Positions 2,728-62,386 of a DNA stretch of 64,000 nucleotides are shown one piece after another. The stretch spans positions 6,054 through 70,053 of the forward strand of contig JBLINH010000001.1 in assembly GCA_047639165.1 (NCBI GenBank), written 5' to 3'. This stretch comes from Minisyncoccia bacterium. Its GTDB lineage: Bacteria > Patescibacteriota > Minisyncoccia > Phycocordibacterales > JAACPR01. The notes under the pieces are model-generated. The model made no database searches and was not told the DNA's origin. It saw nothing but the letters and a program-made list of their open reading frames with translations. How positions within the stretch are numbered: position 1 is the stretch's first letter; each line of letters starts with the position of its first letter. The translations under genes and the position numbers were made by a program.

Positions 2728-3360
2728 TTATTCTTTTGCCTTCATCTTCTTGCAGAACTCTTTAAAAGAGGATACATCCATCAGGAATTGGTTCTTTGTA
2801 AGCCCCTTCTTTTTATTCTTTAATAAAATATTCATTTCATCTTGGGATGTGTCCTCATTTATTTGTAAAAATATTACAGGGAACTCGTTCATCATTTTAA
2901 GGTCATACTTACGTAGTTTGCTATTCAAACATCCTAATAAGCTACCTTTGTCATTGGCATAAAAAACATCTACAGAAAAATGTTTCTTTTTATAAGAAAT
3001 AAAGAAATCTGACTTAGCTCTATGATCATCAGTGAAAGAAAAGTTTCTGTGTATACTACGAGGCTCAAAATTGGCTTCTAAGAGTTTGTAAATTTTTTTA
3101 ACGTAGTTTTGTTTACGTAGATATATGTCAGAGGCCCTTTTTGAACTATAAGAACCTTCAGCCAAATTATGTTGGCCGGTAAGTTTCAATTCTTTTCTTA
3201 AATTTACCAGTCCCCCAAACCTTCTTTGAATTTGGCGTGAAGATGGGAGGTCCTCATGTTTATCAAATTCTACAGATGTTGGATACCTTTTATTGACTTT
3301 ATAAAAAGAGGTTAGTCCTTTTTTTATTTTCTTTAAGTCCCAAGTAGGTTTTTTTGGCAT
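2728..3360 (-). CDS. Hypothetical protein with a homing-endonuclease-like N-terminal DNA-binding motif
   Basis: A 210-aa ORF. N-terminal YPTSVEFDKHEDLPSSRQIQRRFGGLVNLRKELKL resembles the PS..TI.RRFGSW..AL helix motif of phage HNH/homing-endonuclease proteins. The gene is bracketed by 14-bp inverted repeats. Confidence 0.4.
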   Translation of the reverse strand: MPKKPTWDLKKIKKGLTSFYKVNKRYPTSVEFDKHEDLPSSRQIQRRFGGLVNLRKELKLTGQHNLAEGSYSSKRASDIYLRKQNYVKKIYKLLEANFEPRSIHRNFSFTDDHRAKSDFFISYKKKHFSVDVFYANDKGSLLGCLNSKLRKYDLKMMNEFPVIFLQINEDTSQDEMNILLKNKKKGLTKNQFLMDVSSFKEFCKKMKAKE

Positions 3361-15113: not shown

Positions 15114-15632
15114 CTAATTCGATACCTCTGAATTTAGTCGCGACTTAGCTTCTTTTAAAATAGCTAAATCCCTCTCAACCATAAATTGCCCTCCATAATT
15201 GTTGGTCTTAATATCAGCTACTAAGACAATGGCTTCATCCAGATCAACCCAGTGTATTTCATAACCACTTTCAATTTCAGATTCTGTGAAATTAGGTTTG
15301 TTCTTGTCTCCAACAACCTTAGCAAAAAAGTTGTGTGATTCTTGGAATAGTTCTTGCTGACCACGATATTCAATAACCATTCCTAACTCTTCACCAATTT
15401 CAATATCACATCCAATTTCCTCTTCCGCTTCTCTTTCTAAGCCTTGCTTAATAGTTTCTCCTCCTTCTACTCCACCACCCGGTAATTTATAGTAGTTATA
15501 TGTTGATACTTTAAGTAATGCAATCTTATCATCAGTATCAAATATAACTGCTCTAGCAGCGACTCGTTTACGAAATTTTGTTACCTCTAAATCTTTAATA
15601 TTTTCTGGATTTATGATTTTAAGTTCTCTCAT
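15114..15632 (-). CDS. NUDIX hydrolase
   Basis: Nudix box GGGVEGGETIKQGLEREAEEEIG. Confidence 0.85.
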   Translation of the reverse strand: MRELKIINPENIKDLEVTKFRKRVAARAVIFDTDDKIALLKVSTYNYYKLPGGGVEGGETIKQGLEREAEEEIGCDIEIGEELGMVIEYRGQQELFQESHNFFAKVVGDKNKPNFTESEIESGYEIHWVDLDEAIVLVADIKTNNYGGQFMVERDLAILKEAKSRLNSEVSN

Positions 15633-16054
15633 ATAGATTTCTTTAATTCTTCAGTAATTTGAATAAGTACTTCTTCTGAGATTTTTTCTACATTCTCTTC
15701 TCCTCTTAAGTAGTGATGTGCGAAATTTGGATCTGAAAAAGTTTTTCCAGCAACATTAACAGGATCTTCGTGTCTTGGTCTTAGATGCCAATGAACTCTT
15801 GGAGTCGGTGGATTATTCTTATATGCGTTATTCATTAAACAAGTCCAATTAAACATTGTTGCATTAAAAGTTTTTTTAAAGAGATCCTCAGTCTTTTTAA
15901 CAATTTTATAAAAATCGTCACTTTCTTCTTTAGATATTTCTGATAGATGACCGCAATCTCTTTTTAATAGGATTAATGATCTTCCTAGATATTTCTGATC
16001 CTGCATTAAATACACTTCCCAGTAGGATGTTTCAAAAATTAACTCTTTTTTCAT
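15629..16054 (-). CDS. HIT-family nucleotide hydrolase/transferase-like protein
   Basis: GRSLILLKRDCGHLSEIS...EE and RVHWHLRPR fit the HIT fold pattern with two of the three His of the triad. Overlaps the NUDIX gene by 4 nt. Confidence 0.5.
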   Translation of the reverse strand: MKKELIFETSYWEVYLMQDQKYLGRSLILLKRDCGHLSEISKEESDDFYKIVKKTEDLFKKTFNATMFNWTCLMNNAYKNNPPTPRVHWHLRPRHEDPVNVAGKTFSDPNFAHHYLRGEENVEKISEEVLIQITEELKKSI

Positions 16055-21376: not shown

Positions 21377-21535
21377 TTACAACTCTTCCTCGAGAAGTTC
21401 TTCGTCATAGGGCTCAGATTCAAATACTTCAAAATCTTTATCTATGAAGTTACTTTTGTATGTAAATACTATTGAAATGACAATAAGTATTAATACAATC
21501 AGGAACAATGTTTTGCTTTTTATATCCATAGACAT
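21377..21535 (-). CDS. Small membrane protein with an acidic tail (52 aa)
   Basis: ATG at 21535. One TM helix and the C-terminal tail EPYDEELLEEEL. It falls below the ORF-track length cutoff. Confidence 0.3.
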   Translation of the reverse strand: MSMDIKSKTLFLIVLILIVISIVFTYKSNFIDKDFEVFESEPYDEELLEEEL

Positions 21536-22345: not shown

Positions 22346-22813
22346 CTAGCTATCAGATCTGTTTGTTAGAAGAAAAGATAGTAGTGGTATTGCGATCCAA
22401 ACTCCATATGGAACTTTCGATGTGAAAAATTCACTGAAAGGAAGACTGAAAGAATATATCTGACCAATTGGGAGCACGTGGTAGTACAAAACTAATACTA
22501 TTACTGTAGCTGCAATACTTAAAATAACTCCATCTAGAAACTTTCTTCCTCCAGAGTATAGTTTCTTGGCACCTGTGTTTTTTTCTAGAAGAAAGAAAAG
22601 GATTACAAAGATTAAAGCCCACGCCCCTATCCGAGCATAGATATTTTCCAAAGAAACATATGGAAGATTTTCAAATATTAAAGTAGTTGGATAGAAAAGT
22701 AGAATTAGCCTTGCAAGAACTTTTTTTCCTGCGTACATGGAAAGTGCAAAAAACAAAACAGCGATTGCAATAAGGATGATTACATCCAATGTGAGAAAAG
22801 CTAAATTTGGCAT
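22346..22813 (-). CDS. Hypothetical membrane protein
   Basis: 155 aa with 4-5 predicted TM helices. Confidence 0.45.
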   Translation of the reverse strand: MPNLAFLTLDVIILIAIAVLFFALSMYAGKKVLARLILLFYPTTLIFENLPYVSLENIYARIGAWALIFVILFFLLEKNTGAKKLYSGGRKFLDGVILSIAATVIVLVLYYHVLPIGQIYSFSLPFSEFFTSKVPYGVWIAIPLLSFLLTNRSDS

Positions 22814-22855: not shown

Positions 22856-23719
22856 TTACAGACCTTCTTTTTTCAAAGCCTCGATTGCGTCCTTTGCTTT
22901 CTTTGAAATATTAGTAGGTGTCTTGATTAGGATAGTAACAAACAGATCTCCATTTCCTCTGTTTGGTACTGGCACTCCCTTCCCTGCAATACGAAGTTGT
23001 TCACCGTGCTTTATTCCAACAGGTATTTTGATCTTCATCTTTCCATCCAATGTTTCAATTTCTTTGTTTATACCCAAAAGAGATTCAGTTAGTTTGATCT
23101 CAATAGTTGTTAGTAGGTGAACTCCTTGTTTTACCAAACTATCATGTGGAGTTACATATATTCGAACATATAGATCTCCAGGCCTACCATTTTGAAACGG
23201 TTCTCCTTTACCAGTTATTCTGATAACTTCTCCGTTATCAATTCCCTGTGGAATTGTAAAAGTAATGTCTTCTATGTCCCCTCTTGTATCTCTTTGAACT
23301 TTTACAGTCTTCTTCGCACCAAAGATAGATTCTTTGAAGTCGAGAGTAAGGTCCACTTGGATATCTCTTCCCTTTTGAACTCGTCCTCTACCTCCACCAA
23401 ACATCTGACCCAGAATGTCATTTATATCAAAGTCTGCTCCTCCTTGAGAGAATCCTGAGAAATCAAAACCTCCAAAGCCTTGTGCTCCTCCTCCCCCACC
23501 TCCACCAGAAAAGGCATTACCGAACTGATCGTACTGAGCTCTTTTCTGATCATCTGAGAGAACTGTGTAAGCTTCGTTTATCTCTTTGAATTTAGCTTCA
23601 TCTCCGGATGGTTTGTCTGGGTGGTACTTTTGAGCAAGCTTTCTGAAAGCTTTTTTAACATCTTCTTTAGATGCTTCCTTGTCTACTCCTAGAGTTTTGT
23701 AGTGATCTTTTGTTGCCAT
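22856..23719 (-). CDS. dnaJ: J-domain co-chaperone (type II DnaJ/CbpA-like, no zinc finger)
   Basis: J-domain with HPD ([15 protein letters not shown]), a Gly-rich linker, and the C-terminal substrate-binding domains. No CxxCxGxG repeats. Confidence 0.85.
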
Positions 23720-23806: not shown

Positions 23807-24115
23807 ATGAAAATACAAAGACTCGTAGTTAATCTCGGCACAAAAAGTTCTTTTGTCCATAAGAATTATCCTGTAGATATACATCCTCAAATTGGTTGGT
23901 GCTACCATTTTTTGGATGATAAAAATTATTCTTTCATAGTTGTAGATATTTATAAAAGTCCAAGTTTTGGAGAAAATAATATACCTAGGTGGCAGGGCGA
24001 TATATCCTGTAGCACTTCTGTTGTTATGGAACTTTGCCAACCGTTTTTTAATGATACGGTAGAGTATTTAACTACAGAGCTTGAAAAGAGAGATTTTAAG
24101 AAGTTACGAAAATAA
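23807..24115 (+). CDS. Hypothetical Cys/His-containing small protein (102 aa), convergent with dnaK
   Basis: An ORF with its own upstream promoter-like element, ending at a bidirectional terminator. The alternative start at 23702 overlaps dnaJ. Confidence 0.4.
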   Translation: MKIQRLVVNLGTKSSFVHKNYPVDIHPQIGWCYHFLDDKNYSFIVVDIYKSPSFGENNIPRWQGDISCSTSVVMELCQPFFNDTVEYLTTELEKRDFKKLRK

Positions 24116-29983: not shown

Positions 29984-30412
29984 TTAAACTCTTCGTGGCT
30001 TACGAATAGTTGGTCCATTATGTGGAACAGGTGTTCGGTCCTTGATAGAACTGATTTGAATACCTTTTGAAACAAATCCTCGAACAGCAGCTTCTCGTCC
30101 AGAACCCACTCCCTTGATGACAACATCAATCTCTTTAAGACCTATTTGTTCTGCTTTTTCAAGAAGTGTCTCTCCTATCTTAGCGGCAGCGAAAGGTGTT
30201 CCTTTCTTTGCTCCTTTGAATCCTAGAGCTCCACTTGAAGATGCGATAATTAGATTACCGTTCATGTCTGTAAGAGCCACCTTGGTGTTATTGTATGTAG
30301 ATTGAACATGCAAAATACCCTTATCTAGTTTTCTCCTAGATAGTTTACGTGATGATGCTCTTTTTGCTATTTCATCACTAGATCCTTTTTTTACAATTCG
30401 TTTCTTTCCCAT
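29984..30412 (-). CDS. rpsK: 30S ribosomal protein S11
   Basis: S11 signature region GFKGAKKGTPFAA. Confidence 0.9.
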   Translation of the reverse strand: MGKKRIVKKGSSDEIAKRASSRKLSRRKLDKGILHVQSTYNNTKVALTDMNGNLIIASSSGALGFKGAKKGTPFAAAKIGETLLEKAEQIGLKEIDVVIKGVGSGREAAVRGFVSKGIQISSIKDRTPVPHNGPTIRKPRRV

Positions 30413-35519: not shown

Positions 35520-35738
35520 TTACTTAACGTATATTTGCAAGATAAAACTTACAATCATTAGCGATATTCCTACGACCGCGTATAACTTCTCTTTTTTAAT
35601 AGTAGTGTAAACATCTTTGTCTAGCTTGTGTTCTTTAAGTACGTGAGAATGTACTCTGACAACAGCCATGGCAATTAATATTTCTCCTAAAAGTTCTAGT
35701 GTTAGTGCTAAAGTGTACATAGTAATTAATGTGAGCAA
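35520..35738 (-). CDS. Small 2-TM membrane protein (72 aa)
   Basis: Two hydrophobic helices. Overlaps the 3' end of the ATP-cone/Mrr gene by 13 nt. Confidence 0.45.
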   Translation of the reverse strand: MLTLITMYTLALTLELLGEILIAMAVVRVHSHVLKEHKLDKDVYTTIKKEKLYAVVGISLMIVSFILQIYVK

Positions 35739-42425: not shown

Positions 42426-44783
42426 TTACACAACTAGGTTTATTAGCTTATTTTCTACAAAAATGGTCTTCTTTATTTCTTTGCCTTCAACCCACTTTTG
42501 GATTGAAGTATTGTCATGGATCATTTCTAAAATCTCTGTTTCAGGTGTATTTCTTTCGACAGAAATACTGTCTCTAACTTTACCGTTCACCTGAACAACT
42601 ATAGAAACTATACTATCCTCAATTTTCGATTCGTCAAATGACGGGAAGCTTTCTTTATGGATTGAATTCTTTTCTCCTAAGTTACTCCAGATTTCTTCTG
42701 TAATGTGAGGTGCAAATGGTGCAAGAAGTTTAAGAATTGTTCCATAAGAATCTTTAGAAACATGAGATTCTTTTTCAAAAGCATTTACAGCAATCATTAA
42801 TTGTGAGATTGCTGTGTTGAAATTAACACTCTCTATATCCTCCGTTACTTTCTTAATAGTTCTGTTCAAAAGAATTATATTTTCATCACTATCATTCTCT
42901 TCTTTCACAGACTCTTGAAGTTTCCAAACTTTTTCCAAGAATCTTCTTGGTCCAACAACACCATCTGTACTCCAGATTACGGGCTGGTCAAAAGGTCCCA
43001 TGAACATTTCGTACACCCTGAAAGAATCCGCACCTATTTGTGATATTACATCATCAGGGTTCACAACATTCCCCCATCTCTTACTCATCTTCCTCCCATC
43101 CTCTGCACCTATGAGTCCAACGTGTTGTAGCTTTTTAAAGGGCTCTGAATAGTTAACAACTTTGATGTCATACAAAAACTTATGCCAGAATCTTGCATAT
43201 ATAAGGTGTCTTGTAGCGTGCTCTGCTCCACCAACGTATAAATCAACTGGTGACCAGAACTTTTCCTTATCTATATCAACCAAAGAATCTGTATTATTAG
43301 GATCTATATATCTAAGATAATACCAAGATGATCCTGCCCATTGAGGCATTGTATTTGTCTCTCTCTTGCCTGCTCCATCACATTTTGGACACTTTGTATT
43401 AACCCAATCAGTAATACCAGCTAATGGTGATTCTCCTGTTCCTGTTGGTTCGTATGATTCTACTTCTGGCAGTATAACAGGAAGATCCTCCTCTTTAACT
43501 GGGACAGCTCCGCAAGCTCCGCAATGAACTATTGGAATTGGTTCTCCCCAATATCTTTGACGTGAGAATACCCAATCACGAAGCTTATAATCTGTTTTTA
43601 ATTCTCCACCAGCTTTCTCTGTTATTTTCTTCTTAGCTTCTTCTGAGGTTAAACCATCAAATTCAAAAGAGTTAATTATTTTTTTATTTTCATCTACAAC
43701 CTCTTTAATAGGTAGATTATATTTAATAGCAAATTCTTTATCTCTTTCATCATGTCCTGGAACCGCCATGATTGCTCCTGTTCCATAATGTGCAAGAACA
43801 TAATCTGCAATGTATACAGGAATACTTTCTTTATTTATAGGATTGATTGCAGAAATACCTTCAAGTAGTACTCCTGTTTTTTCTTTACCTTCAGAAGTTC
43901 TTTCTATTTCATTCTTTTTAGAAGTCTCTTCAATATATCCTTTAACTTCTTTTATATTTTCAATCTTACCTTCTAGCGAATGAATTAGAGGATGCTCAGG
44001 TGCAATAACCATATATGTAGCACCAAACAAAGTATCAGCACGTGTGGTGAATACTTCTATTTTTTCTGTAGCATCTTTTATATCAAAAGTAATATTTGAT
44101 CCTTCACTTCTACCAATCCAATTCCTTTGAGATTCTTTTATTGATTTTGGCCAATCCAATTCTTCTATATCATCAAGTAGTCTGTCTGCATATTCTCTAA
44201 TTTTTAGAACCCACTGTCTGATTGGTTTTTGTTCAACTATGGATCCACAACGTTCACATTTTCCATCTACCAAATCTTCATTAGCTAACCCTGTTTTACA
44301 AGAAGGACACCAATTTATTGGTTCATTTGATTCATATGCCAGACCTTTTTCATGTAGCTTAAGGAAGATCCATTGTGTCCATTTGTAGTACTCGGGATCG
44401 GTTGTATTGATTTCTTTGTCCCAGTCGTATGTGAATCCAATAATATCTAACTGTTCCTTGAATCTTTTAATGTTTTTTTCAACGGCAACTCTAGGGTGCA
44501 CTTTATTTTTGATTGCGTAGTTTTCTGCGGGTAAACCAAAAGCATCCCATCCCATTGGATGTAGAACGTTGAAGCCATTCATCGTTTTAAATCTAGAAAT
44601 TACGTCAGTTGCAATGTATCCTTTTGGATGTCCAACATGGAGACCTTCTCCTGATGGATAAGGAAACATGTCCAGAACGTAATATTTGGGCTTCTTAGGG
44701 TCATCAGAAGTTTTGAATGATCCACTTTCTTTCCAGGTATTCTGCCACTTACCTTCTATATTTTTATGATTGTACCTATCCAT
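42426..44783 (-). CDS. leuS: Leucine--tRNA ligase
   Basis: PYPSGEGLHVGHPKGY (HIGH), KMSKR, and a CP1 editing domain. 785 aa. Confidence 0.9.
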   Translation of the reverse strand: MDRYNHKNIEGKWQNTWKESGSFKTSDDPKKPKYYVLDMFPYPSGEGLHVGHPKGYIATDVISRFKTMNGFNVLHPMGWDAFGLPAENYAIKNKVHPRVAVEKNIKRFKEQLDIIGFTYDWDKEINTTDPEYYKWTQWIFLKLHEKGLAYESNEPINWCPSCKTGLANEDLVDGKCERCGSIVEQKPIRQWVLKIREYADRLLDDIEELDWPKSIKESQRNWIGRSEGSNITFDIKDATEKIEVFTTRADTLFGATYMVIAPEHPLIHSLEGKIENIKEVKGYIEETSKKNEIERTSEGKEKTGVLLEGISAINPINKESIPVYIADYVLAHYGTGAIMAVPGHDERDKEFAIKYNLPIKEVVDENKKIINSFEFDGLTSEEAKKKITEKAGGELKTDYKLRDWVFSRQRYWGEPIPIVHCGACGAVPVKEEDLPVILPEVESYEPTGTGESPLAGITDWVNTKCPKCDGAGKRETNTMPQWAGSSWYYLRYIDPNNTDSLVDIDKEKFWSPVDLYVGGAEHATRHLIYARFWHKFLYDIKVVNYSEPFKKLQHVGLIGAEDGRKMSKRWGNVVNPDDVISQIGADSFRVYEMFMGPFDQPVIWSTDGVVGPRRFLEKVWKLQESVKEENDSDENIILLNRTIKKVTEDIESVNFNTAISQLMIAVNAFEKESHVSKDSYGTILKLLAPFAPHITEEIWSNLGEKNSIHKESFPSFDESKIEDSIVSIVVQVNGKVRDSISVERNTPETEILEMIHDNTSIQKWVEGKEIKKTIFVENKLINLVV

Positions 44784-48366: not shown

Positions 48367-48609
48367 CTAAGGCCTAAACTCGTTCAATAATCTTCTTACA
48401 TCCTCGACTCTGTCCCCAACAAAAGGAACAAATCCCAATATATCCAAAAACCAACTAGCACCAATAATAATCAGAGTTGCTCCAGCAACAGCTCCAGATC
48501 CTTGAAGCATTCCATACCACACAATCTTCCACCATGAGTTAAATCTTTCGCTTAGTCTATTAACTGATTTTTTTAAATCGTCTATGGATCCTTTTAGGTC
48601 ATCATTCAT
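48367..48609 (-). CDS. Hypothetical small membrane protein (80 aa)
   Basis: One or two TM helices. Overlaps the upstream ORF by 4 nt. Confidence 0.4.
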   Translation of the reverse strand: MNDDLKGSIDDLKKSVNRLSERFNSWWKIVWYGMLQGSGAVAGATLIIIGASWFLDILGFVPFVGDRVEDVRRLLNEFRP

Positions 48610-48851
48610 ATTTTTGTTTCTGTATTTATTTCTTTTATTACTTTATTTTTCTTTTTCGCTCTAAACACTGTTGGCATCATAAAAAGAGCTCCTGAGATAA
48701 AACCTGTAACCAAGGTAATGAAAAGAATTACAGCGAGAGGTGCTTCAACTGAAAGATTAAAGAAAGAAACAGAAGTTTGTTCAATGTTCTGAAGAACAAA
48801 GATCATTGCAACTGCTGAAATTATTGTAGCTATTGTTATTAGAAGTCTCAT
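48606..48851 (-). CDS. LapA/DUF1049-like small inner-membrane protein
   Basis: Two-TM topology with a basic C-terminal tail, about 80 aa. Confidence 0.4.
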   Translation of the reverse strand: MRLLITIATIISAVAMIFVLQNIEQTSVSFFNLSVEAPLAVILFITLVTGFISGALFMMPTVFRAKKKNKVIKEINTETKI

Positions 48852-48865
48852 AAAAATATACTAAC

Positions 48866-49813
48866 CTATCTTAAGTAATAATCAATATTTTGTTTATGCC
48901 CATCGTAAGTAGCAGAACAATGAATGTTTCTTCTGGCATCGTGAAGATAGAATAAACAACTAGTATCAATTGGACTAAGTGCCGCTGCTACGGCTGATTT
49001 ACCGGGGTTTGCGATAGCTGTAGGAGGTAATCCTTTGTTTTGATATGTATTGTATGGAGATTCTAAATACTTATCCTTAGGATGGACTCTAGGCCACCAT
49101 AGTTCTTCATCCCCTTTTACATACTGGAGTGTTGCATCTAATTGAAGTGGCATTCCTTGTTCCAATCTATTCCAGATAATTCCAGATATTAATCTCATAT
49201 CATTTTTTCCTCCAGCTTCTCTTTGAATTAGAGATGCAATGGTTACTATCTTATTAACTTCAGAAGGATTATCTTTCCCTGAAACTTCTTCTATATAACT
49301 GTACAGTTCAGCATTCATCTCGTTTTTGATGACATTAACCCCTTCGTCTTTATGGATTGCATACTTACCTGGATGCAAGTATCCTTCACTTCCTATTAGA
49401 GAACAGAATGGAAATATTTTTGAGAATCTATCTACTTTCTCGTCATCCCAACTAAGAAGTTCTCCAACTTCTTTTGCAATTTCTTCTGTTCGAAGCCCTT
49501 CTTCAATATATACATATTTATATACAGGATCGATAAGTCTCGCATGTAGTGCAAGTGCTCCCATGCCTTCTTGAAGCTCAAAACCTCCAAGCGCATAGGT
49601 ATTGTTGAACTTAGCATTCAATGACAACATCCAGTATGAAAGTTTATTTTGAATGAATCCTTCCTCGTATAACTTATTTACAATTTCTTGCGATGTTAAT
49701 TCTTCATCGATAAAAACAACTTTACTAGGTTTGCTTTCATTGTGTGTGTAGAAAACAGAAAAAAATAAAACAAAAAGTAGTACCGGTACAAGAATTCTAG
49801 TTTTCCTATTCAT
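48866..49813 (-). CDS. Endolytic murein transglycosylase MltG (YceG-like), copy 2
   Basis: SPYNTYQNKGLPPTAIANPGKSAVAAALSP, with an N-terminal anchor. Confidence 0.8.
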   Translation of the reverse strand: MNRKTRILVPVLLFVLFFSVFYTHNESKPSKVVFIDEELTSQEIVNKLYEEGFIQNKLSYWMLSLNAKFNNTYALGGFELQEGMGALALHARLIDPVYKYVYIEEGLRTEEIAKEVGELLSWDDEKVDRFSKIFPFCSLIGSEGYLHPGKYAIHKDEGVNVIKNEMNAELYSYIEEVSGKDNPSEVNKIVTIASLIQREAGGKNDMRLISGIIWNRLEQGMPLQLDATLQYVKGDEELWWPRVHPKDKYLESPYNTYQNKGLPPTAIANPGKSAVAAALSPIDTSCLFYLHDARRNIHCSATYDGHKQNIDYYLR

Positions 49814-50389: not shown

Positions 50390-51532
50390 TTAAAAAGTAA
50401 ATATACTCCACCAAGACTTCGATATTTTTTCAACTTCAAAACTGCCCTTTTCAACAACAATAGTGTGTTTTATCTTCACGGGGATAAAACCAAATAATTT
50501 TGCTTTAGTTTTTCCACTCACAGTAAAGTTATAGTCATTTTCTTTTACGACATTTAAGCCTCTGGAGCTGAACTTTTCTTTCACTTTATCAGTTATGTAT
50601 TCTTTTCTCTCTTCTTCATTATCTGTTTCAAGTATTTTTTCTCTAGTATCTTCGATAAACTCCTTTTTTATATTTTCTATTGAAGGTCTAGTAGTATTAC
50701 TATTTACTTGGTTACTTACCGGTATAATTGGATTTTGATGAGGAGTACTCATACTCTCAACTTTAGTTACCTCAATTGTTTCAGTTTTATCGATACTATC
50801 CAATTCCTTAATTACTTTTACTACTTCCTTCTCTACATCTTCTTTAACATCTATGTCTTTAGAAATACTAACTTTTTCATAAGTAACCTCAACTTGACCA
50901 CAATCAACTGAGAATACCCATTCATTACCTGAGTATGCATCAACAGTTCGCTCGTATGTACCAGTATTGTTAAAAACTTGTGTGTAAGGCGCAGATTCAA
51001 TCTCTATATTTGGAGTTATTGTAAAATCATATAAATCTTTCTTTCCACCAAAATCAACCACCCAATCAACGCTTTCACCTACAAATACATCTCTGCCGGT
51101 TGGGTGACATTCAACCTCCTCCCCAGGCCATGGTTCTGGATCTGGTGTTTGTGCAGGTATGATTTCATACGCACCTATATAAATGTAGTCATCCGAGTAA
51201 GCTTCAATAGTATTACCATCTGATGTTTTTCCTACTATCTTAGTCTTAAACTTCAAACCACCCTCTAGAAAATCAGTGACCTCCCAATGCCAAAACTTAT
51301 ATAGAGCATTATAATCTTTCTTTATTAAATGTAGTTGCCCTGTCTCAACTGACTCTAGGTATATAGATAGAGTCTCTATACCCTCTTGTTCCCAATGTGC
51401 TGTAACATCTTCACCTACCTCAAAAACATCTCTTACTGGAAATATAACTTTTATATAAGGTTCGGCTTCAGCATTAACAAAAGAAACTGGCATTGCCAGT
51501 AATATAATTAAAAACAAAAAGATCTTTTTCAT
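50390..51532 (-). CDS. Hypothetical secreted protein (380 aa)
   Basis: Signal peptide, no recognisable domain. Confidence 0.45.
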   Translation of the reverse strand: MKKIFLFLIILLAMPVSFVNAEAEPYIKVIFPVRDVFEVGEDVTAHWEQEGIETLSIYLESVETGQLHLIKKDYNALYKFWHWEVTDFLEGGLKFKTKIVGKTSDGNTIEAYSDDYIYIGAYEIIPAQTPDPEPWPGEEVECHPTGRDVFVGESVDWVVDFGGKKDLYDFTITPNIEIESAPYTQVFNNTGTYERTVDAYSGNEWVFSVDCGQVEVTYEKVSISKDIDVKEDVEKEVVKVIKELDSIDKTETIEVTKVESMSTPHQNPIIPVSNQVNSNTTRPSIENIKKEFIEDTREKILETDNEEERKEYITDKVKEKFSSRGLNVVKENDYNFTVSGKTKAKLFGFIPVKIKHTIVVEKGSFEVEKISKSWWSIFTF

Positions 51533-51581: not shown

Positions 51582-51656
51582 GGTGGACCTGACAGGATTT
51601 GAACCCGCTACCTCCTCAGTGCAAATGAGGCGCTCTACCAATTGAGCTACAGGCCC
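51582..51656 (-). tRNA. tRNA-Ala (anticodon UGC)
   Basis: The reverse complement folds as a cloverleaf. Acceptor GGGCCTG/CAGGTCC has a G3:U70 pair, the anticodon loop is TTTGCAC, the T-loop is TTCAAAT, and the discriminator is A with CC encoded. Confidence 0.85.
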
Positions 51657-52680: not shown

Positions 52681-53853
52681 TTATTTAAGTTTCTTCCTGT
52701 GAGTTTTACGATAGAAAGAAATTGCAAACCTATGAGCTTCACTGTTAGCTATTAGGACATCCCTCTCATGCTTCCCTATAACTCCTAAAAACTTCTCAGG
52801 CTTATGTTTATCATTCTTTACAACAGATACAACTGGTATATTAAATTCGTTTTCTTTCAAGACCTTTAGAGCTCTATTTCTTTGACCAACACCACCATCG
52901 ACAACTATTAGGTTAGGATATGGCCATTCCGGATGTTTCAGCCTTCTTCTAAGAATCTCTTCAAGAGCCCCAACATCATCTCCTTTTTTAGCTTTCCTTA
53001 GGATGAACTTCCTGTAGTCGGATTTTTTAACCTCACTATCTTCAACCACGGTCATTACTCCAACGGAACTAGTTCCTTGCAGATGAGCTACATCATAGCT
53101 TTCGATTCTGAAATCAATACTGGCTTTTATATTCTCATCTTTGATTAGGGAGACATCTCTAATGTGGTTTAAGGCAAAGATTTTTCTTTTTAAAGAAGAG
53201 GCTTTTTCAAATTCCTTCTCTTTGGCAAGAGTCATCATTTCTTTTTCAAGACTTTGAATTATCTTTTTCTTTTTACCTTGAAAGAAAAGTTTTATATGTC
53301 GTATATTATTTAAATATTCTTTCTTTGTTATCTCACCTGGCTCGAATCCAATTTGTTCGTACAATTTGGAAGACTTCTTCTCTCCATAGAAAGGAAAAAT
53401 CTTCCTGACAATTTTCAAGGCTTCTTCTAATTGTGTTTTGGAAGAGAAAGGTCCGAAGATTGCTAAATACTTTTTATCTTCAAACTCCATGTTTCTTTCT
53501 CTTTTCACCACAACTTTAGGAAGGTCATCTTTTGTGATGAGAACATAGTTAAAACTTTTGTTGTCTTTCTCTATCGAATTATATTTTGGTTGGTGCTTCT
53601 TTATCAGTTCCGCTTCTAGTATTAAAGCTTCTAGAACAGAATCGGTTTCCTGAACTTCTATATCGTTTGATATTGTAACCATATCTACAATCCTAGAACT
53701 TCTAGTGTTTATGAGGTCATTTGCGAAATAGCTCTTGGTTCTATCCTTAAGAGATGTGGCCTTACCTATGTATAGTATTTCTTTATCTTTTTTAAAGAAA
53801 TACACACCTGGAGAATCAGGTAATTTTTTGTTTTTTAAGTAGGATAGTTCCAT
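52681..53853 (-). CDS. uvrC: Excinuclease ABC subunit C, short form lacking the C-terminal (HhH)2 domain
   Basis: N-terminal GIY-YIG (GVYFFKKDKEILYIGKATSLKDR), a UVR region, and the endonuclease-V-like region (VAHLQGTSSVGVMTV). Only 390 aa. Confidence 0.75.
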   Translation of the reverse strand: MELSYLKNKKLPDSPGVYFFKKDKEILYIGKATSLKDRTKSYFANDLINTRSSRIVDMVTISNDIEVQETDSVLEALILEAELIKKHQPKYNSIEKDNKSFNYVLITKDDLPKVVVKRERNMEFEDKKYLAIFGPFSSKTQLEEALKIVRKIFPFYGEKKSSKLYEQIGFEPGEITKKEYLNNIRHIKLFFQGKKKKIIQSLEKEMMTLAKEKEFEKASSLKRKIFALNHIRDVSLIKDENIKASIDFRIESYDVAHLQGTSSVGVMTVVEDSEVKKSDYRKFILRKAKKGDDVGALEEILRRRLKHPEWPYPNLIVVDGGVGQRNRALKVLKENEFNIPVVSVVKNDKHKPEKFLGVIGKHERDVLIANSEAHRFAISFYRKTHRKKLK

Positions 53854-53883
53854 ATGTTCTTTATATCACAAGAATAGATAATC

Positions 53884-53911
53884 TTGCAATTTTTATATAT
53901 TGTGGTATAGT
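53884..53911 (+). promoter_or_regulatory. Strong sigma-70-like promoter with an extended -10 (TTGCAA-16-TGgTATAGT)
   Basis: TTGCAA at 53884-89, TG at 53903-04, and TATAGT at 53906-11. Confidence 0.5.
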
Positions 53912-53919
53912 ACATACAG

Positions 53920-54138
53920 ATGAAAAGATATCCAGTAATAGTGAGCAAAGGTCAACTTCTTTATAGGAGTCCAGATTGTAACAAGACTGTTGCAGTTTTG
54001 ATCCTACATGCATTAGTGATACTTGCCTTCGTGCCACTATCTTCAAAATTCTCACCAAACCAGAAGGAATTGAAACCAGCTACCCCACCACCCGTCAAGG
54101 TGGTGGAAGAAGCTAAAATAACTTCTGTGTCGAGGTAA
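53920..54138 (+). CDS. Candidate small membrane protein (72 aa); alternatively the body of an sRNA
   Basis: The ORF starts 9 nt after the predicted -10 and has no SD. It contains a TM-like segment. It is followed by three stable hairpins and a T-run. Confidence 0.3.
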   Translation: MKRYPVIVSKGQLLYRSPDCNKTVAVLILHALVILAFVPLSSKFSPNQKELKPATPPPVKVVEEAKITSVSR

Positions 54139-54195
54139 AGATTTATATCTTTACCTAGAAACCACTCGTCACTTTGTGCACGAGTGGTTTTCTCT
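54085..54195. terminator. Triple hairpin cluster with a T-run (terminator for the plus cassette and for uvrA)
   Basis: Hairpins ccaccacc/ggtggtgg at 54085-54106, ggtaaagat/atctttacc at 54134-54155, and accactcgt/acgagtggt at 54161-54188, then tttctcttttatttcttt. Confidence 0.55.
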
Positions 54196-54196
54196 T

Positions 54197-56791
54197 TTAT
54201 TTCTTTAAATACTTCTTCAAGTAATTTCCAGTGTACGACTCCTTAACTTGAGCAACTTGTTCAGGTGTTCCCTTTGCTACGATGTTTCCACCCTTTTCTC
54301 CCCCTTCAGGTCCGATATCTATAACATAATCAGCAGACTTGATAATATCCATACTGTGCTCGATGATAATTACAGTATTTCCCTTATCAACCAGTTTCTG
54401 AAGAATTTCGATAAGTTTAATAACGTCCTCGTAGTGTAAACCAATTGTTGGTTCATCTAAGATATACACTGTTTTTTGTAAGTGAGATCTATACAACTCT
54501 GATGATATTTTAACTCTCTGTGCCTCTCCACCTGAAAGTGTAGTTGCTGATTGTCCAAGCTCCAGATATCCAAGACCCACTTCGTTTAGAGTTTTCAGTC
54601 TGTCTGAGATTGATGGTATATCGATAAAGAATTTAAGTGCGTCTTCAACTGTCATATTCAAAACATCATGAATATTTTTATTTTTGTACTTAACCTCCAA
54701 AGTTTCTTTCATAAATCTCTTTCCCATACAAACTTCACAAGGAACATATACAGTTGGAAGAAAGTGCATTTCAACAGCTATCTGTCCGTTTCCTTGGCAA
54801 GCTTCACATCTTCCACCTTTAACATTGAAAGAGAACCTTCCAGATTTCCATCCTCTGTATCTTGCTTCTTCAGTTTCAGCAAACATATCTCTGATATGTG
54901 TCCACGCTCCAGTATATGTAGCAGGGTTTGATCTAGGAGTTCTACCGATAGCCGATTGATTTATAAGGATTGACCTCCCAGCGTACTCAGTACCGGTAAA
55001 TTCTTTACAGTTATACAGATCATTAGTTCTGTATTTTCTATCGAATCGAGCTCTAAGGTTTTTGTTTAAGATCTCGTATACAAAAGATGACTTTCCAGAT
55101 CCAGATACTCCAGTAACAGCTACCAGTTTACCGAGAGGAATATCAACATTCATATTTTTTATATTAAAAATATTTCCACCCTTAATTCTAATCTTTCCTT
55201 TATTTTCATCCCTTCTTTTCTTTGGGATAGGGATCACCTTATCACCTCGAAGATAATCTAGTGTTACAGACCCTGAAGGATTTGTTTTTGCTGTAAGGAG
55301 TTTTTCTAATTCCCCAGCCACTACAACTTCCCCGCCATGATTTCCAGCTCCTGGTCCAATATCAACAATATAGTCTGATGCGAAGATAGTATCTTCGTCA
55401 TGTTCCACTACTATTATAGTATTTCCTAAATCACGAAGCTCAAGAAGAGTTTTGATCAGCCGATCATTATCTCTCGAGTGTAAACCAATTGTTGGTTCAT
55501 CAAGTACATAAAGTGCACCAACCAAACCTGATCCTAGTTGACTAGCTAATCTAATTCTTTGAGCTTCTCCACCAGAGAGAGTGTGAGCCTTTCTGTTTAG
55601 TCCTAGGTATTCAATACCAACATTATCCATGAAGTTAAGTCTGGCTTCTATTTCTTTTATAACAACTTTTGCAATTTCTTTCTCCACTTTAGAAAGTTTT
55701 AGTTTTGAGAAAAACATAAGAGCCTTACTAATAGACATAGCCGAAAGAAGTACTATATTGATCTTCTCTTTAGAATCTCCTAAATACACACTAAGTGCTT
55801 CAGCTCTTAATCTATCTCCATTACACTTCTTACAAACTTCATCCCCAAAGAAATGTCTTGTTCCAAGACCATTACATTCATCACATGCTCCGTGAGGTGA
55901 GTTAAATGAGAACAGTCTTGGTTCTATTTCTGGAAATGAGAACCCATCGTATGGACACATGAATTTAGATGACATTAGTTTCTCTTCCTCAAAAGCTACT
56001 ATCTTAATCAAGCCTTCTGTTTCATCAAGGGTTTTTTCGATAGCTTCACTCAGTCTTTCTTTTGTATCATCACTTCCTGATTTTACCTCACTAACAAAAA
56101 ACTCATCGATGAGGATATCAATATCGTGTTTTTTATTCTTAGCAAGTTCTATCCTGTCCCGTAGTTTTATTTCTTTTCCATCAATTCTTGCTTTCTCATA
56201 TCCTTTTCCAAGATAGTCGTATAGTAACTGATAGTATTCCCCCTTTCTTCCAACAACTACAGGAGCAAATATTTTTACTTTCAAATCGTTTATCTTTACA
56301 CCCATAACATCCTTATCAATTTTTTTTGTATCAATATCCTTCACTGCCTTTATGACAGTCCGCAGAATTTCCTCATTAGATAGTTTTTTTATCTCTCTCC
56401 CGCACTCTAAACAGTGAGGCTTACCAACTCTGGCAAAAAGTATTCGAAGGTAATCATATATTTCTGTAATAGTGGCAACTGTTGATCTAGGGTTATTTGA
56501 TCTTGATTTCTGATCTATTGAAATGGCAGGGGAAAGACCTGTGATCTCATCAACATCAGGTTTTTGCATTTGTTTAAGGAATTGTCTGGCATATGCAGAA
56601 AGAGATTCAACATATCTTCTTTGTCCTTCAGCGAAGATAGTATCAAAAGCTAATGATGATTTTCCAGATCCAGATAGACCAGTGAAAACTACCATTTTGT
56701 CTCGTGGCATTTCTAAGTCTATATTCTTTAGATTATGGGTTCTTGCGCCCTTAACCACTATTTTGTCTTTGTCTTCTTTTTTACTTTCCAT
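54197..56791 (-). CDS. uvrA: Excinuclease ABC subunit A
   Basis: Two ABC cassettes ([23 protein letters not shown]), zinc-finger Cys clusters, and [11 protein letters not shown] near the N-terminus. Confidence 0.9.
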
Positions 56792-56861
56792 AGAGTATTC
56801 CCTATGCATGGTGGCACAGAGTTTAATTATCTTATATGTAGAGGACATCTTAGCAGAAAAG

Positions 56862-62170: not shown

Positions 62171-62386
62171 ATGAAGAAGAACACCGCCGCATTATTGTTA
62201 TTGATAGGAGCTGGAATCATCTTAGCTATTTCAGGAAATAACGCAGTTCCTGAAATAGATAATGTACTCATGTTCAAGGAATACTCGAACATGAATCAAC
62301 TATCTACATGGTTCTTCAGAGCCATGTCTGCGATGTTAGTACTAGCGTCACTATTAATATTCTTCTCTCCAAAAAGTAGAATATAA
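62171..62386 (+). CDS. Small 2-TM membrane protein (71 aa) with a strong SD
   Basis: AAGGAG sits 9 nt upstream of the ATG, which is rare in this window. Two hydrophobic helices, then a terminator. Confidence 0.55.
   Translation: MKKNTAALLLLIGAGIILAISGNNAVPEIDNVLMFKEYSNMNQLSTWFFRAMSAMLVLASLLIFFSPKSRI

Follow-up and report, generated by a model that had tools for sequence, protein, structure and literature searches.

A candidate leaderless gene for a small membrane protein, carrying a dimorphic 88-nt patch, between uvrC and uvrA in a Paceibacteria genome

The window analysed here is a 64-kb stretch from a metagenome-assembled genome (MAG) of Candidatus Paceibacteria (Patescibacteria/CPR), whose G+C content is 35%. 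The minus strand carries nearly all of its genes, among them the DNA-repair genes uvrC and uvrA, which are separated by a gap of 343 nt (53854-54196). On its plus strand, this gap contains an extended -10 promoter sequence, a 72-aa open reading frame (ORF) that NCBI and JGI already list as a "hypothetical protein", and a series of hairpins followed by a T-run (Table 1). As nearly all genes of the window lie on the minus strand, this plus-strand unit is divergent from uvrC and convergent with uvrA. The original prediction had described a promoter-to-terminator unit opposite to the two uvr genes, and this anatomy holds for all of its elements.

Table 1. Features in and around the gap between uvrC and uvrA, in window coordinates; fold z-scores are given for both strands where available.
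Feature	Position	Strand	Description
uvrC	52681-53853	-	Pfam GIY-YIG and UvrC_RNaseH_dom
Putative uvrC extended -10, TGaTATAAA	53860-53868	-	Read from sequence; 6 nt before the uvrC ATG (53853)
-35 hexamer, TTGCAA	53884-53889	both (palindromic)	Sequence and promoter scan
Extended -10, TGgTATAGT	53903-53911	+	Sequence and promoter scan
Small ORF, 72 aa	53920-54138	+	ORF call; ATG at 53920, TAA stop at 54136-54138
5' imperfect hairpin, ~20 bp	53964-54006	+	G-U-rich, in the coding region; z = -4.3 (+), -1.8 (-)
Dimorphic patch, 88 nt	54001-54088	+	21 differing columns, net +9 nt; end of the TM helix and juxtamembrane segment
72-aa allele			In the window and L115
75-aa allele			In L001 and, independently, L113
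Middle long imperfect hairpin	54061-54127	+	z = -4.5 (+), -5.1 (-); hairpin 1 is its tip
Hairpin 1	CCACCACC 54085-54092 / GGTGGTGG 54099-54106	+	Inverted-repeat search
Hairpin 2	GGTAAAGAT 54134-54142 / ATCTTTACC 54147-54155	+	Perfect 10-bp, AT-rich stem, extending to 54133-54156
Hairpin 3	AAACCACTCGT 54159-54169 / ACGAGTGGTTT 54180-54190	+	11 + 3 bp stem, arms 100% complementary
uvrA	54197-56848	-	Pfam UvrA_inter

The promoter of the small gene combines the -35 hexamer TTGCAA with TATAGT (53906-53911) at a spacing of 16 nt, and is extended by a TG at positions -15/-14 (53903-53904). This element, given as TTGCAA-16-TGgTATAGT in the original prediction, was recovered by both the promoter scan and direct reading. 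As a bare consensus match, the plus-strand promoter is not beyond chance, as a 2-kb region contained 8 promoter-like sites compared with 6.1 +/- 2.5 in shuffled sequences. Given the usual distance of 7 nt from the -10, transcription is predicted to start at about A53918, only 2 nt 5' of the ATG. The TTGCAA hexamer is common to two promoters, since it can also be read on the minus strand as part of a putative uvrC promoter with the layout TTGCAA-18-TGaTATAAA-6-ATG. uvrC itself is predicted to be leaderless, with the same start layout as the small gene, and we infer that the left 66 nt of the gap form a compact pair of divergent leaderless promoters. Both of these (53860-53911) have an extended -10 with a start codon 6-8 nt downstream, and RNA polymerase can probably occupy only one of the two at a time.

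Start sites were surveyed across the window in the regions upstream of the 55 ATG genes that do not overlap and encode 100 aa or more. Shine-Dalgarno (SD) cores were scored as GGAG, GAGG or AGGA at -18 to -4, and -10-like hexamers as matches of at least 5/6 to TATAAT that end 4-10 nt before the ATG. SD cores were found for 3 of the 55 genes, compared with 5.4 expected by chance, and are thus not enriched. In contrast, 19 of the 55 genes have a -10-like hexamer in this position, compared with 2.7 expected by chance. The hexamers peak at an offset of 6 from the ATG, so that transcription would begin with the A of the start codon. Because -10-like hexamers are enriched right before the ATG and SD cores are not, many of these genes are probably leaderless, and leaderless initiation seems to be the rule in this MAG. 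Examples of this layout on the minus strand include the genes at 2728-3360, 15629-16054, 22346-22813, 22856-23719, 48866-49813 and 50390-51532. A full-text literature search found no paper stating leaderless initiation in Parcubacteria or Patescibacteria.

The small ORF follows the same pattern. Its TATAGT ends 8 nt before the ATG, inside the 4-10 nt peak, and a GGAG-like motif is absent; the -10 therefore places the start near the ATG with no SD, as is the case for the sequences of leaderless genes. The original prediction had correctly described a 72-aa ORF directly after the -10 without an SD, but had counted an ATG 9 nt past the -10 as an argument against a protein. That argument does not hold here. 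With such starts being normal in this genome (19/55), a -10 followed by an ATG without an SD points to a leaderless mRNA, and not against translation.

The predicted product consists of a basic N-tail (residues 1-22), a hydrophobic helix (residues ~23-41) and a hydrophilic, proline-rich tail that reads KPATPPPVK. The Kyte-Doolittle mean over 19 residues (KD19) reaches 2.46 at residues 23-41 of the 72-aa allele and 2.33 in a second, 75-aa allele, both well above the threshold of 1.6 for a single-pass membrane segment. This agrees with the transmembrane (TM)-like segment and proline-rich tail noted originally. Among 97 spurious ORFs of the window with lengths of 50-110 aa, none scores as high as 2.46 and 3% reach 2.3. 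AlphaFold2 modelled a single helix at residues 20-37 (pLDDT ~73-80), with the rest disordered and a low overall confidence. The N-tail carries five K+R and one D+E, and the C-tail six K+R and 3-4 D+E; an N-in topology would be favoured only slightly. The basic N-tail, the single helix, the proline-rich hydrophilic tail and the variable juxtamembrane segment described below suggest a bitopic envelope protein with an exposed outer part.

When the gap was shuffled 5000 times with its dinucleotides preserved, 1.9% of the shuffles gave an ATG-initiated ORF of 72 aa or longer (p ~0.02). Codon usage, at 0.139 bit/codon, ranks at the 6th percentile among chunks of real genes and at the 95th among spurious ORFs, and is ambiguous between the two. 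Elsewhere in the window, further intergenic small ORFs of 52-81 aa with a KD19 of 2.0-2.6 are present at 21377-21535 (minus), 35520-35738 (minus), 48367-48851 (minus) and 62171-62386 (plus). None of these four is similar to the 72-aa protein. Small membrane proteins seem to be frequent in this genome.

The predicted transcript (53918-54200) is highly structured, with a fold z-score of -6.9 on the plus strand and -6.2 on the minus strand, making it, on either strand, the most structured among 184 background windows of 283 nt. The next most structured windows of this size are 30101-30383 (plus, z = -4.6), which lies in the ribosomal-protein S13/S11 region, and 42701-42983 (plus, z = -3.9). Within the transcript, the signal is found in the 3' 140 nt (z = -4.5 for 54060-54130 and -7.7 for 54128-54200), and the 5' 140 nt as a whole are unremarkable (z = -1.7). 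At finer scale, the 71-nt window at 54121 (z = -8.2) is the most structured of 1066 windows. The original prediction of three consecutive hairpins followed by a T-run is supported: all three were found, and the structure of this 3' hairpin region is far beyond chance.

These hairpins differ in position and strand preference. The 5' imperfect hairpin is stable on the plus strand only. The middle hairpin, which falls in the 1st percentile of 71-nt windows, lies wholly inside the 3' third of the ORF, and is somewhat more stable on the minus strand (-30.8 kcal/mol, compared with -25.7 kcal/mol on the plus strand). Hairpin 2 encloses the stop codon of the ORF. Hairpin 3 is followed on the plus strand by the T-run TTTTCTCTTTT, which extends as far as 54198, where the convergent uvrA has its stop codon, whereas its minus-strand side is followed by TTTCT only. 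This asymmetry indicates that hairpin 3 is built mainly to stop the plus-strand transcript.

The segment 54159-54198 pairs a stable, GC-containing stem-loop with a U-tract, as expected of an intrinsic terminator. Other terminators composed of an A-run, a GC-stem and a T-run occur in the window after 994, 2400, 24115/24175, 27146/27194, 41282, 48067 and 56916. They explain all other extreme 71-nt windows, and several are common to convergent genes. Judged by its sequence, hairpin 3 belongs with these standard intrinsic terminators, which are common in this genome. Hairpin 2 and the middle hairpin are of a strength that is unusual for coding or 3' sequence, and no other terminator in the window is preceded by two further strong hairpins. 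The stacked hairpins had originally been taken as more typical of a structured RNA than of the end of a protein-coding gene. This argument retains its force for the two extra hairpins, but not for hairpin 3, a standard terminator, nor for hairpin 1, which lies in the ORF and is disrupted in the sister allele.

An Rfam scan, which had been proposed as a check on the structured RNA, was run on both strands and returned nothing that matches the promoter-to-terminator cassette. At the gathering threshold, the only Rfam match in the whole window was a tRNA gene at 51584-51656 (minus; RF00005, 69 bits), located between a ddl-like gene and a 380-aa ORF. In a permissive scan of 53700-54350, the best scores were 15-22 bits, compared with thresholds of 44-90.

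Searches for relatives of the small protein were similarly negative. No match was found in Pfam, PHROGs or NCBIfam, with nothing below E = 0.09. Beyond the two alleles, no homologue was found in a word-indexed search of a database of 5.8 billion clustered proteins, or in a full HMMER search of 1.84 billion representative proteins. Two further HMMER matches were rejected, as they are translated tandem repeats.

GTDB genomes and JGI metagenomes were scanned with UvrC as the anchor, yielding 105 loci, among which the adjacency of uvrA and uvrC is widely conserved. In the nearest relatives (54-62% UvrC identity; L002-L005 measured), the two genes lie 0-45 nt apart with no insert, and the 105 loci include no intermediate relatives between the same population and 60-62% UvrC identity. 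Because uvrA and uvrC are so close together in these relatives, the cassette is best described as a lineage-specific insert that probably split an ancestral uvrA-uvrC operon and either brought or evolved its own signals. Searches of the loci and the window with blastn-short, nhmmer and tblastx found no other copies of the cassette and no relics of the gap genes of relatives. A mobile or phage origin was considered and rejected, with no viral contig and no phage DNA match, and with cassette borders that lack both terminal inverted repeats and flanking direct repeats.

Several other loci carry unrelated inserts of ~150-930 nt at the same junction (L006, L009-L011, L013, L016, L021, L023, L033 and L039). 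Several of these have opposite-strand ORFs, some with hydrophobic segments and one resembling a receiver domain. The uvrA-uvrC junction looks like a recurrent insertion site. The neighbouring UvrC is itself only 390 aa long, comprising a GIY-YIG and an RNase H-like endonuclease domain. Since relatives across Paceibacteria and Saccharibacteria align to it from end to end, UvrC appears to be consistently short in these groups, without the usual C-terminal region.

Within the population, variation at this locus is concentrated in one place. Assemblies from the same population differ from the window at 0-8 positions per 13-21 kb, with no cluster of more than 2. The sister contig L001 differs from the window in 25 alignment columns over 20,091 nt, and 21 of these fall in 54001-54088. 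An assembly artefact was rejected as the source of this patch, given that the 75-aa allele is present in two independent assemblies and the 72-aa allele in both the window and L115. No third allele was found among the loci compared. A gene-conversion donor was also rejected, with no second copy in the window or the loci, as was a diversity-generating retroelement (DGR) target, which would show changes at adenines only and no indels; there is no template repeat, and the changes include C-to-T, G-to-A and T-to-C as well as the net 9-nt indel. Three independent short-read assemblies end within or at the edge of the cassette, at positions equivalent to 54089 (L116), 54196 (L113) and 53963 (L115). 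The break in L116 falls exactly at the first polymorphic base, one base after site 54088. Assembly graphs behave in this way where a sample contains both alleles, and the break thus points to their coexistence within single samples.

At the protein level, the 75-aa allele keeps the plus-strand frame through its net 9 additional nt, with no stop. Changes in the helix are either synonymous (F37, L40) or conservative (I28A, V38I). The juxtamembrane segment SSKFSP of the 72-aa allele is replaced by SNFIPKIEQ in the 75-aa allele, and P57 by T. The antisense ORF, by comparison, is truncated from 65 aa to 50 aa. At the RNA level, the substitutions at 54001, 54002 and 54037 fall in predicted stems and keep pairing through wobble pairs, the first two in the 53964-54006 hairpin, whereas C54088A in the sister allele breaks hairpin 1. 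Over the 87 predicted pairs, and with two alleles only, this amounts to no two-sided compensatory change, three one-sided wobble changes and one broken pair. Retention of the frame and the TM segment leans towards a protein, with both the coding and the stem tests short of significance for two alleles. The dimorphic patch is the sole unusual feature of the small gene.

We consider it somewhat more probable than the alternatives combined that a small single-pass membrane protein is encoded in the gap by a leaderless, lineage-specific gene, with a standard terminator shared with uvrA. Favouring a protein are the leaderless start, the length of the ORF, its KD19, the frame kept through the patch, the terminator on the plus strand, the lack of an Rfam family and the nature of the unit as an insert equipped with its own signals. 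Points against it are the ambiguous codon usage, the lack of homologues, a hairpin of terminator strength inside the ORF, and the fact that 3 of the 4 stem substitutions still pair.

The strength of the predicted fold could instead indicate a non-coding structured sRNA of ~280 nt, in which the ORF is fortuitous, the conserved hairpins act as a functional scaffold and the variable, mostly unpaired segment around 54030-54060 forms a loop. Such an RNA would fit the most extreme z-score of the window, a unit bracketed by promoter and terminator, a codon usage that is not gene-like, and a 5' hairpin that is strand-specific through its G-U pairs and in which, together with the stem at 54037, wobble pairing is kept. 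However, most of the z-score is supplied by the terminator module, which is expected on any mRNA, and C54088A and the absence of two-sided compensation also count against such an RNA. The three wobble changes carry little weight, as about half of all transitions in a stem would keep pairing by chance and 3/3 is not significant. There is also no Rfam match, and no copy in the 105 related loci or the rest of the window. Trans-acting sRNAs normally vary least in their single-stranded seed, whereas the single-stranded stretch is the most variable part here. An sRNA would further require a coincidence of an open frame, a strong TM segment, a typical leaderless position and a frame kept through the addition of 9 nt, and is considered unlikely. 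It is also improbable that the gap is a spacer with no plus-strand gene, in which the hairpins terminate uvrA, a promoter serves uvrC, and the ORF and plus-strand promoter are chance by-products. Consensus promoter matches are indeed no commoner than in shuffles, the hairpins fold equally well or better on the minus strand (as seen for the middle hairpin), a good leaderless uvrC promoter lies inside the gap, and in relatives the junction is occupied by unrelated inserts. Yet the T-run is strong on the plus strand and weak on the minus strand, the reverse of what a uvrA terminator would need. Chance would also have to produce the ORF length (p ~0.02), the TM score (p below ~0.03), an ATG spaced from an extended -10 exactly as in a leaderless gene, and a second allele that keeps the plus-strand frame but not the antisense ORF. 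A terminator and a promoter would need ~100 nt, and not 343.

Little weight is given to a third alternative, in which the unit combines both roles, either as an RNA with two functions or as a type I toxin-like module, where translation of a small membrane protein is held back by the heavy folding of its mRNA or by antisense transcripts reading through from uvrA. It would share with such systems a small single-TM product with its own promoter, an unusually structured mRNA with 3' stem-loops and an orphan distribution, and the weakness of the uvrA terminator on its own strand makes antisense read-through plausible. However, the promoter scan of 53854-54196 and inspection of the minus strand revealed no antisense promoter within the unit, so read-through from uvrA would be the only possible supply of antisense RNA to the small gene. 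The window also lacks paralogous copies. Including a hydrophilic tail of 31-34 residues, the product has 72-75 aa and exceeds the typical length of type I toxins, most of which have fewer than 60 aa. The small protein lacks their combination of small size (<~60 aa) and almost entirely hydrophobic sequence.

Leaderless genes for small proteins have reportedly been mapped in Mycobacterium. The candidate gene resembles these in its -10 a few nt before the ATG, its lack of an SD and its short membrane or orphan ORF, and differs in belonging to another phylum (Patescibacteria, Paceibacteria) and in that its leaderless layout is deduced from the position of the -10, as for the 19 of 55 genes above. 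Its terminator resembles those between convergent genes, with a GC-containing stem of 11 + 3 bp at 54159-54190, an A-rich 5' side and a T-run, placed between convergent stops as at 24115/24175 and 27146/27194. Unlike partly bidirectional terminators, hairpin 3 is asymmetric in its T-runs and has two extra hairpins before it. Type I toxins such as Hok, Fst, TisB and TxpA share a small single-helix protein, an own promoter, a folded mRNA and a patchy, orphan distribution with the candidate. Unlike these, it has a longer protein with a hydrophilic tail and no antisense RNA gene was found in the unit; its mRNA also has no SD-sequestering structure, being leaderless as predicted. Dual-function sRNAs such as RNAIII/delta-haemolysin, SgrS/SgrT and SR1/SR1P are likewise structured transcripts, here of ~280 nt, with a small ORF and a terminator. 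In the candidate, however, the ORF begins within the first nucleotides of the transcript and takes up 77% of it, with no Rfam match and no identifiable conserved base-pairing region.

For the leaderless membrane-protein gene, expression could proceed as follows. RNA polymerase would start from TTGCAA-16-TGgTATAGT, ~2 nt before the ATG, giving a leaderless mRNA. Ribosomes would then initiate at the 5'-terminal AUG without an SD, as much of the genome appears to do, and produce a protein of 72 aa (75 aa in the second allele) with a basic N-tail, a hydrophobic helix and a proline-rich hydrophilic tail. Transcription would end at the hairpin 54159-54190 and its T-run, a stem that also faces the convergent uvrA. 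For the two upstream hairpins, the likeliest role would be either to stabilise the 3' end or to keep read-through from uvrA from running antisense into the small gene. Insertion of this gene would have split the ancestral uvrA-uvrC operon, leaving uvrC on its own leaderless promoter with the shared palindromic -35.

The patch itself raises the question of selection. Local divergence is ~20% in 54001-54088, compared with at most 0.04% over the other 60 kb, and might reflect a maintained dimorphism, although we judge this to be unlikely. If the juxtamembrane segment is surface-exposed in an episymbiotic CPR cell, hosts or phages may exert balancing or diversifying selection on the small protein. 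The patch could also represent a structured RNA with a swappable single-stranded module.

In summary, the locus would encode a further small orphan membrane protein from a CPR bacterium, and its kind of gene is already known. The points worth carrying forward are the genome-wide leaderless architecture and the dimorphic patch. In this lineage, an ATG next to a -10 and without an SD cannot be used as evidence against translation, and intergenic small ORFs of Paceibacteria should be judged with leaderless starts in mind. The 88-nt patch holds nearly all of the difference between co-occurring strains over 60 kb, and may provide a cheap marker for selection or recombination in an uncultivated episymbiont.
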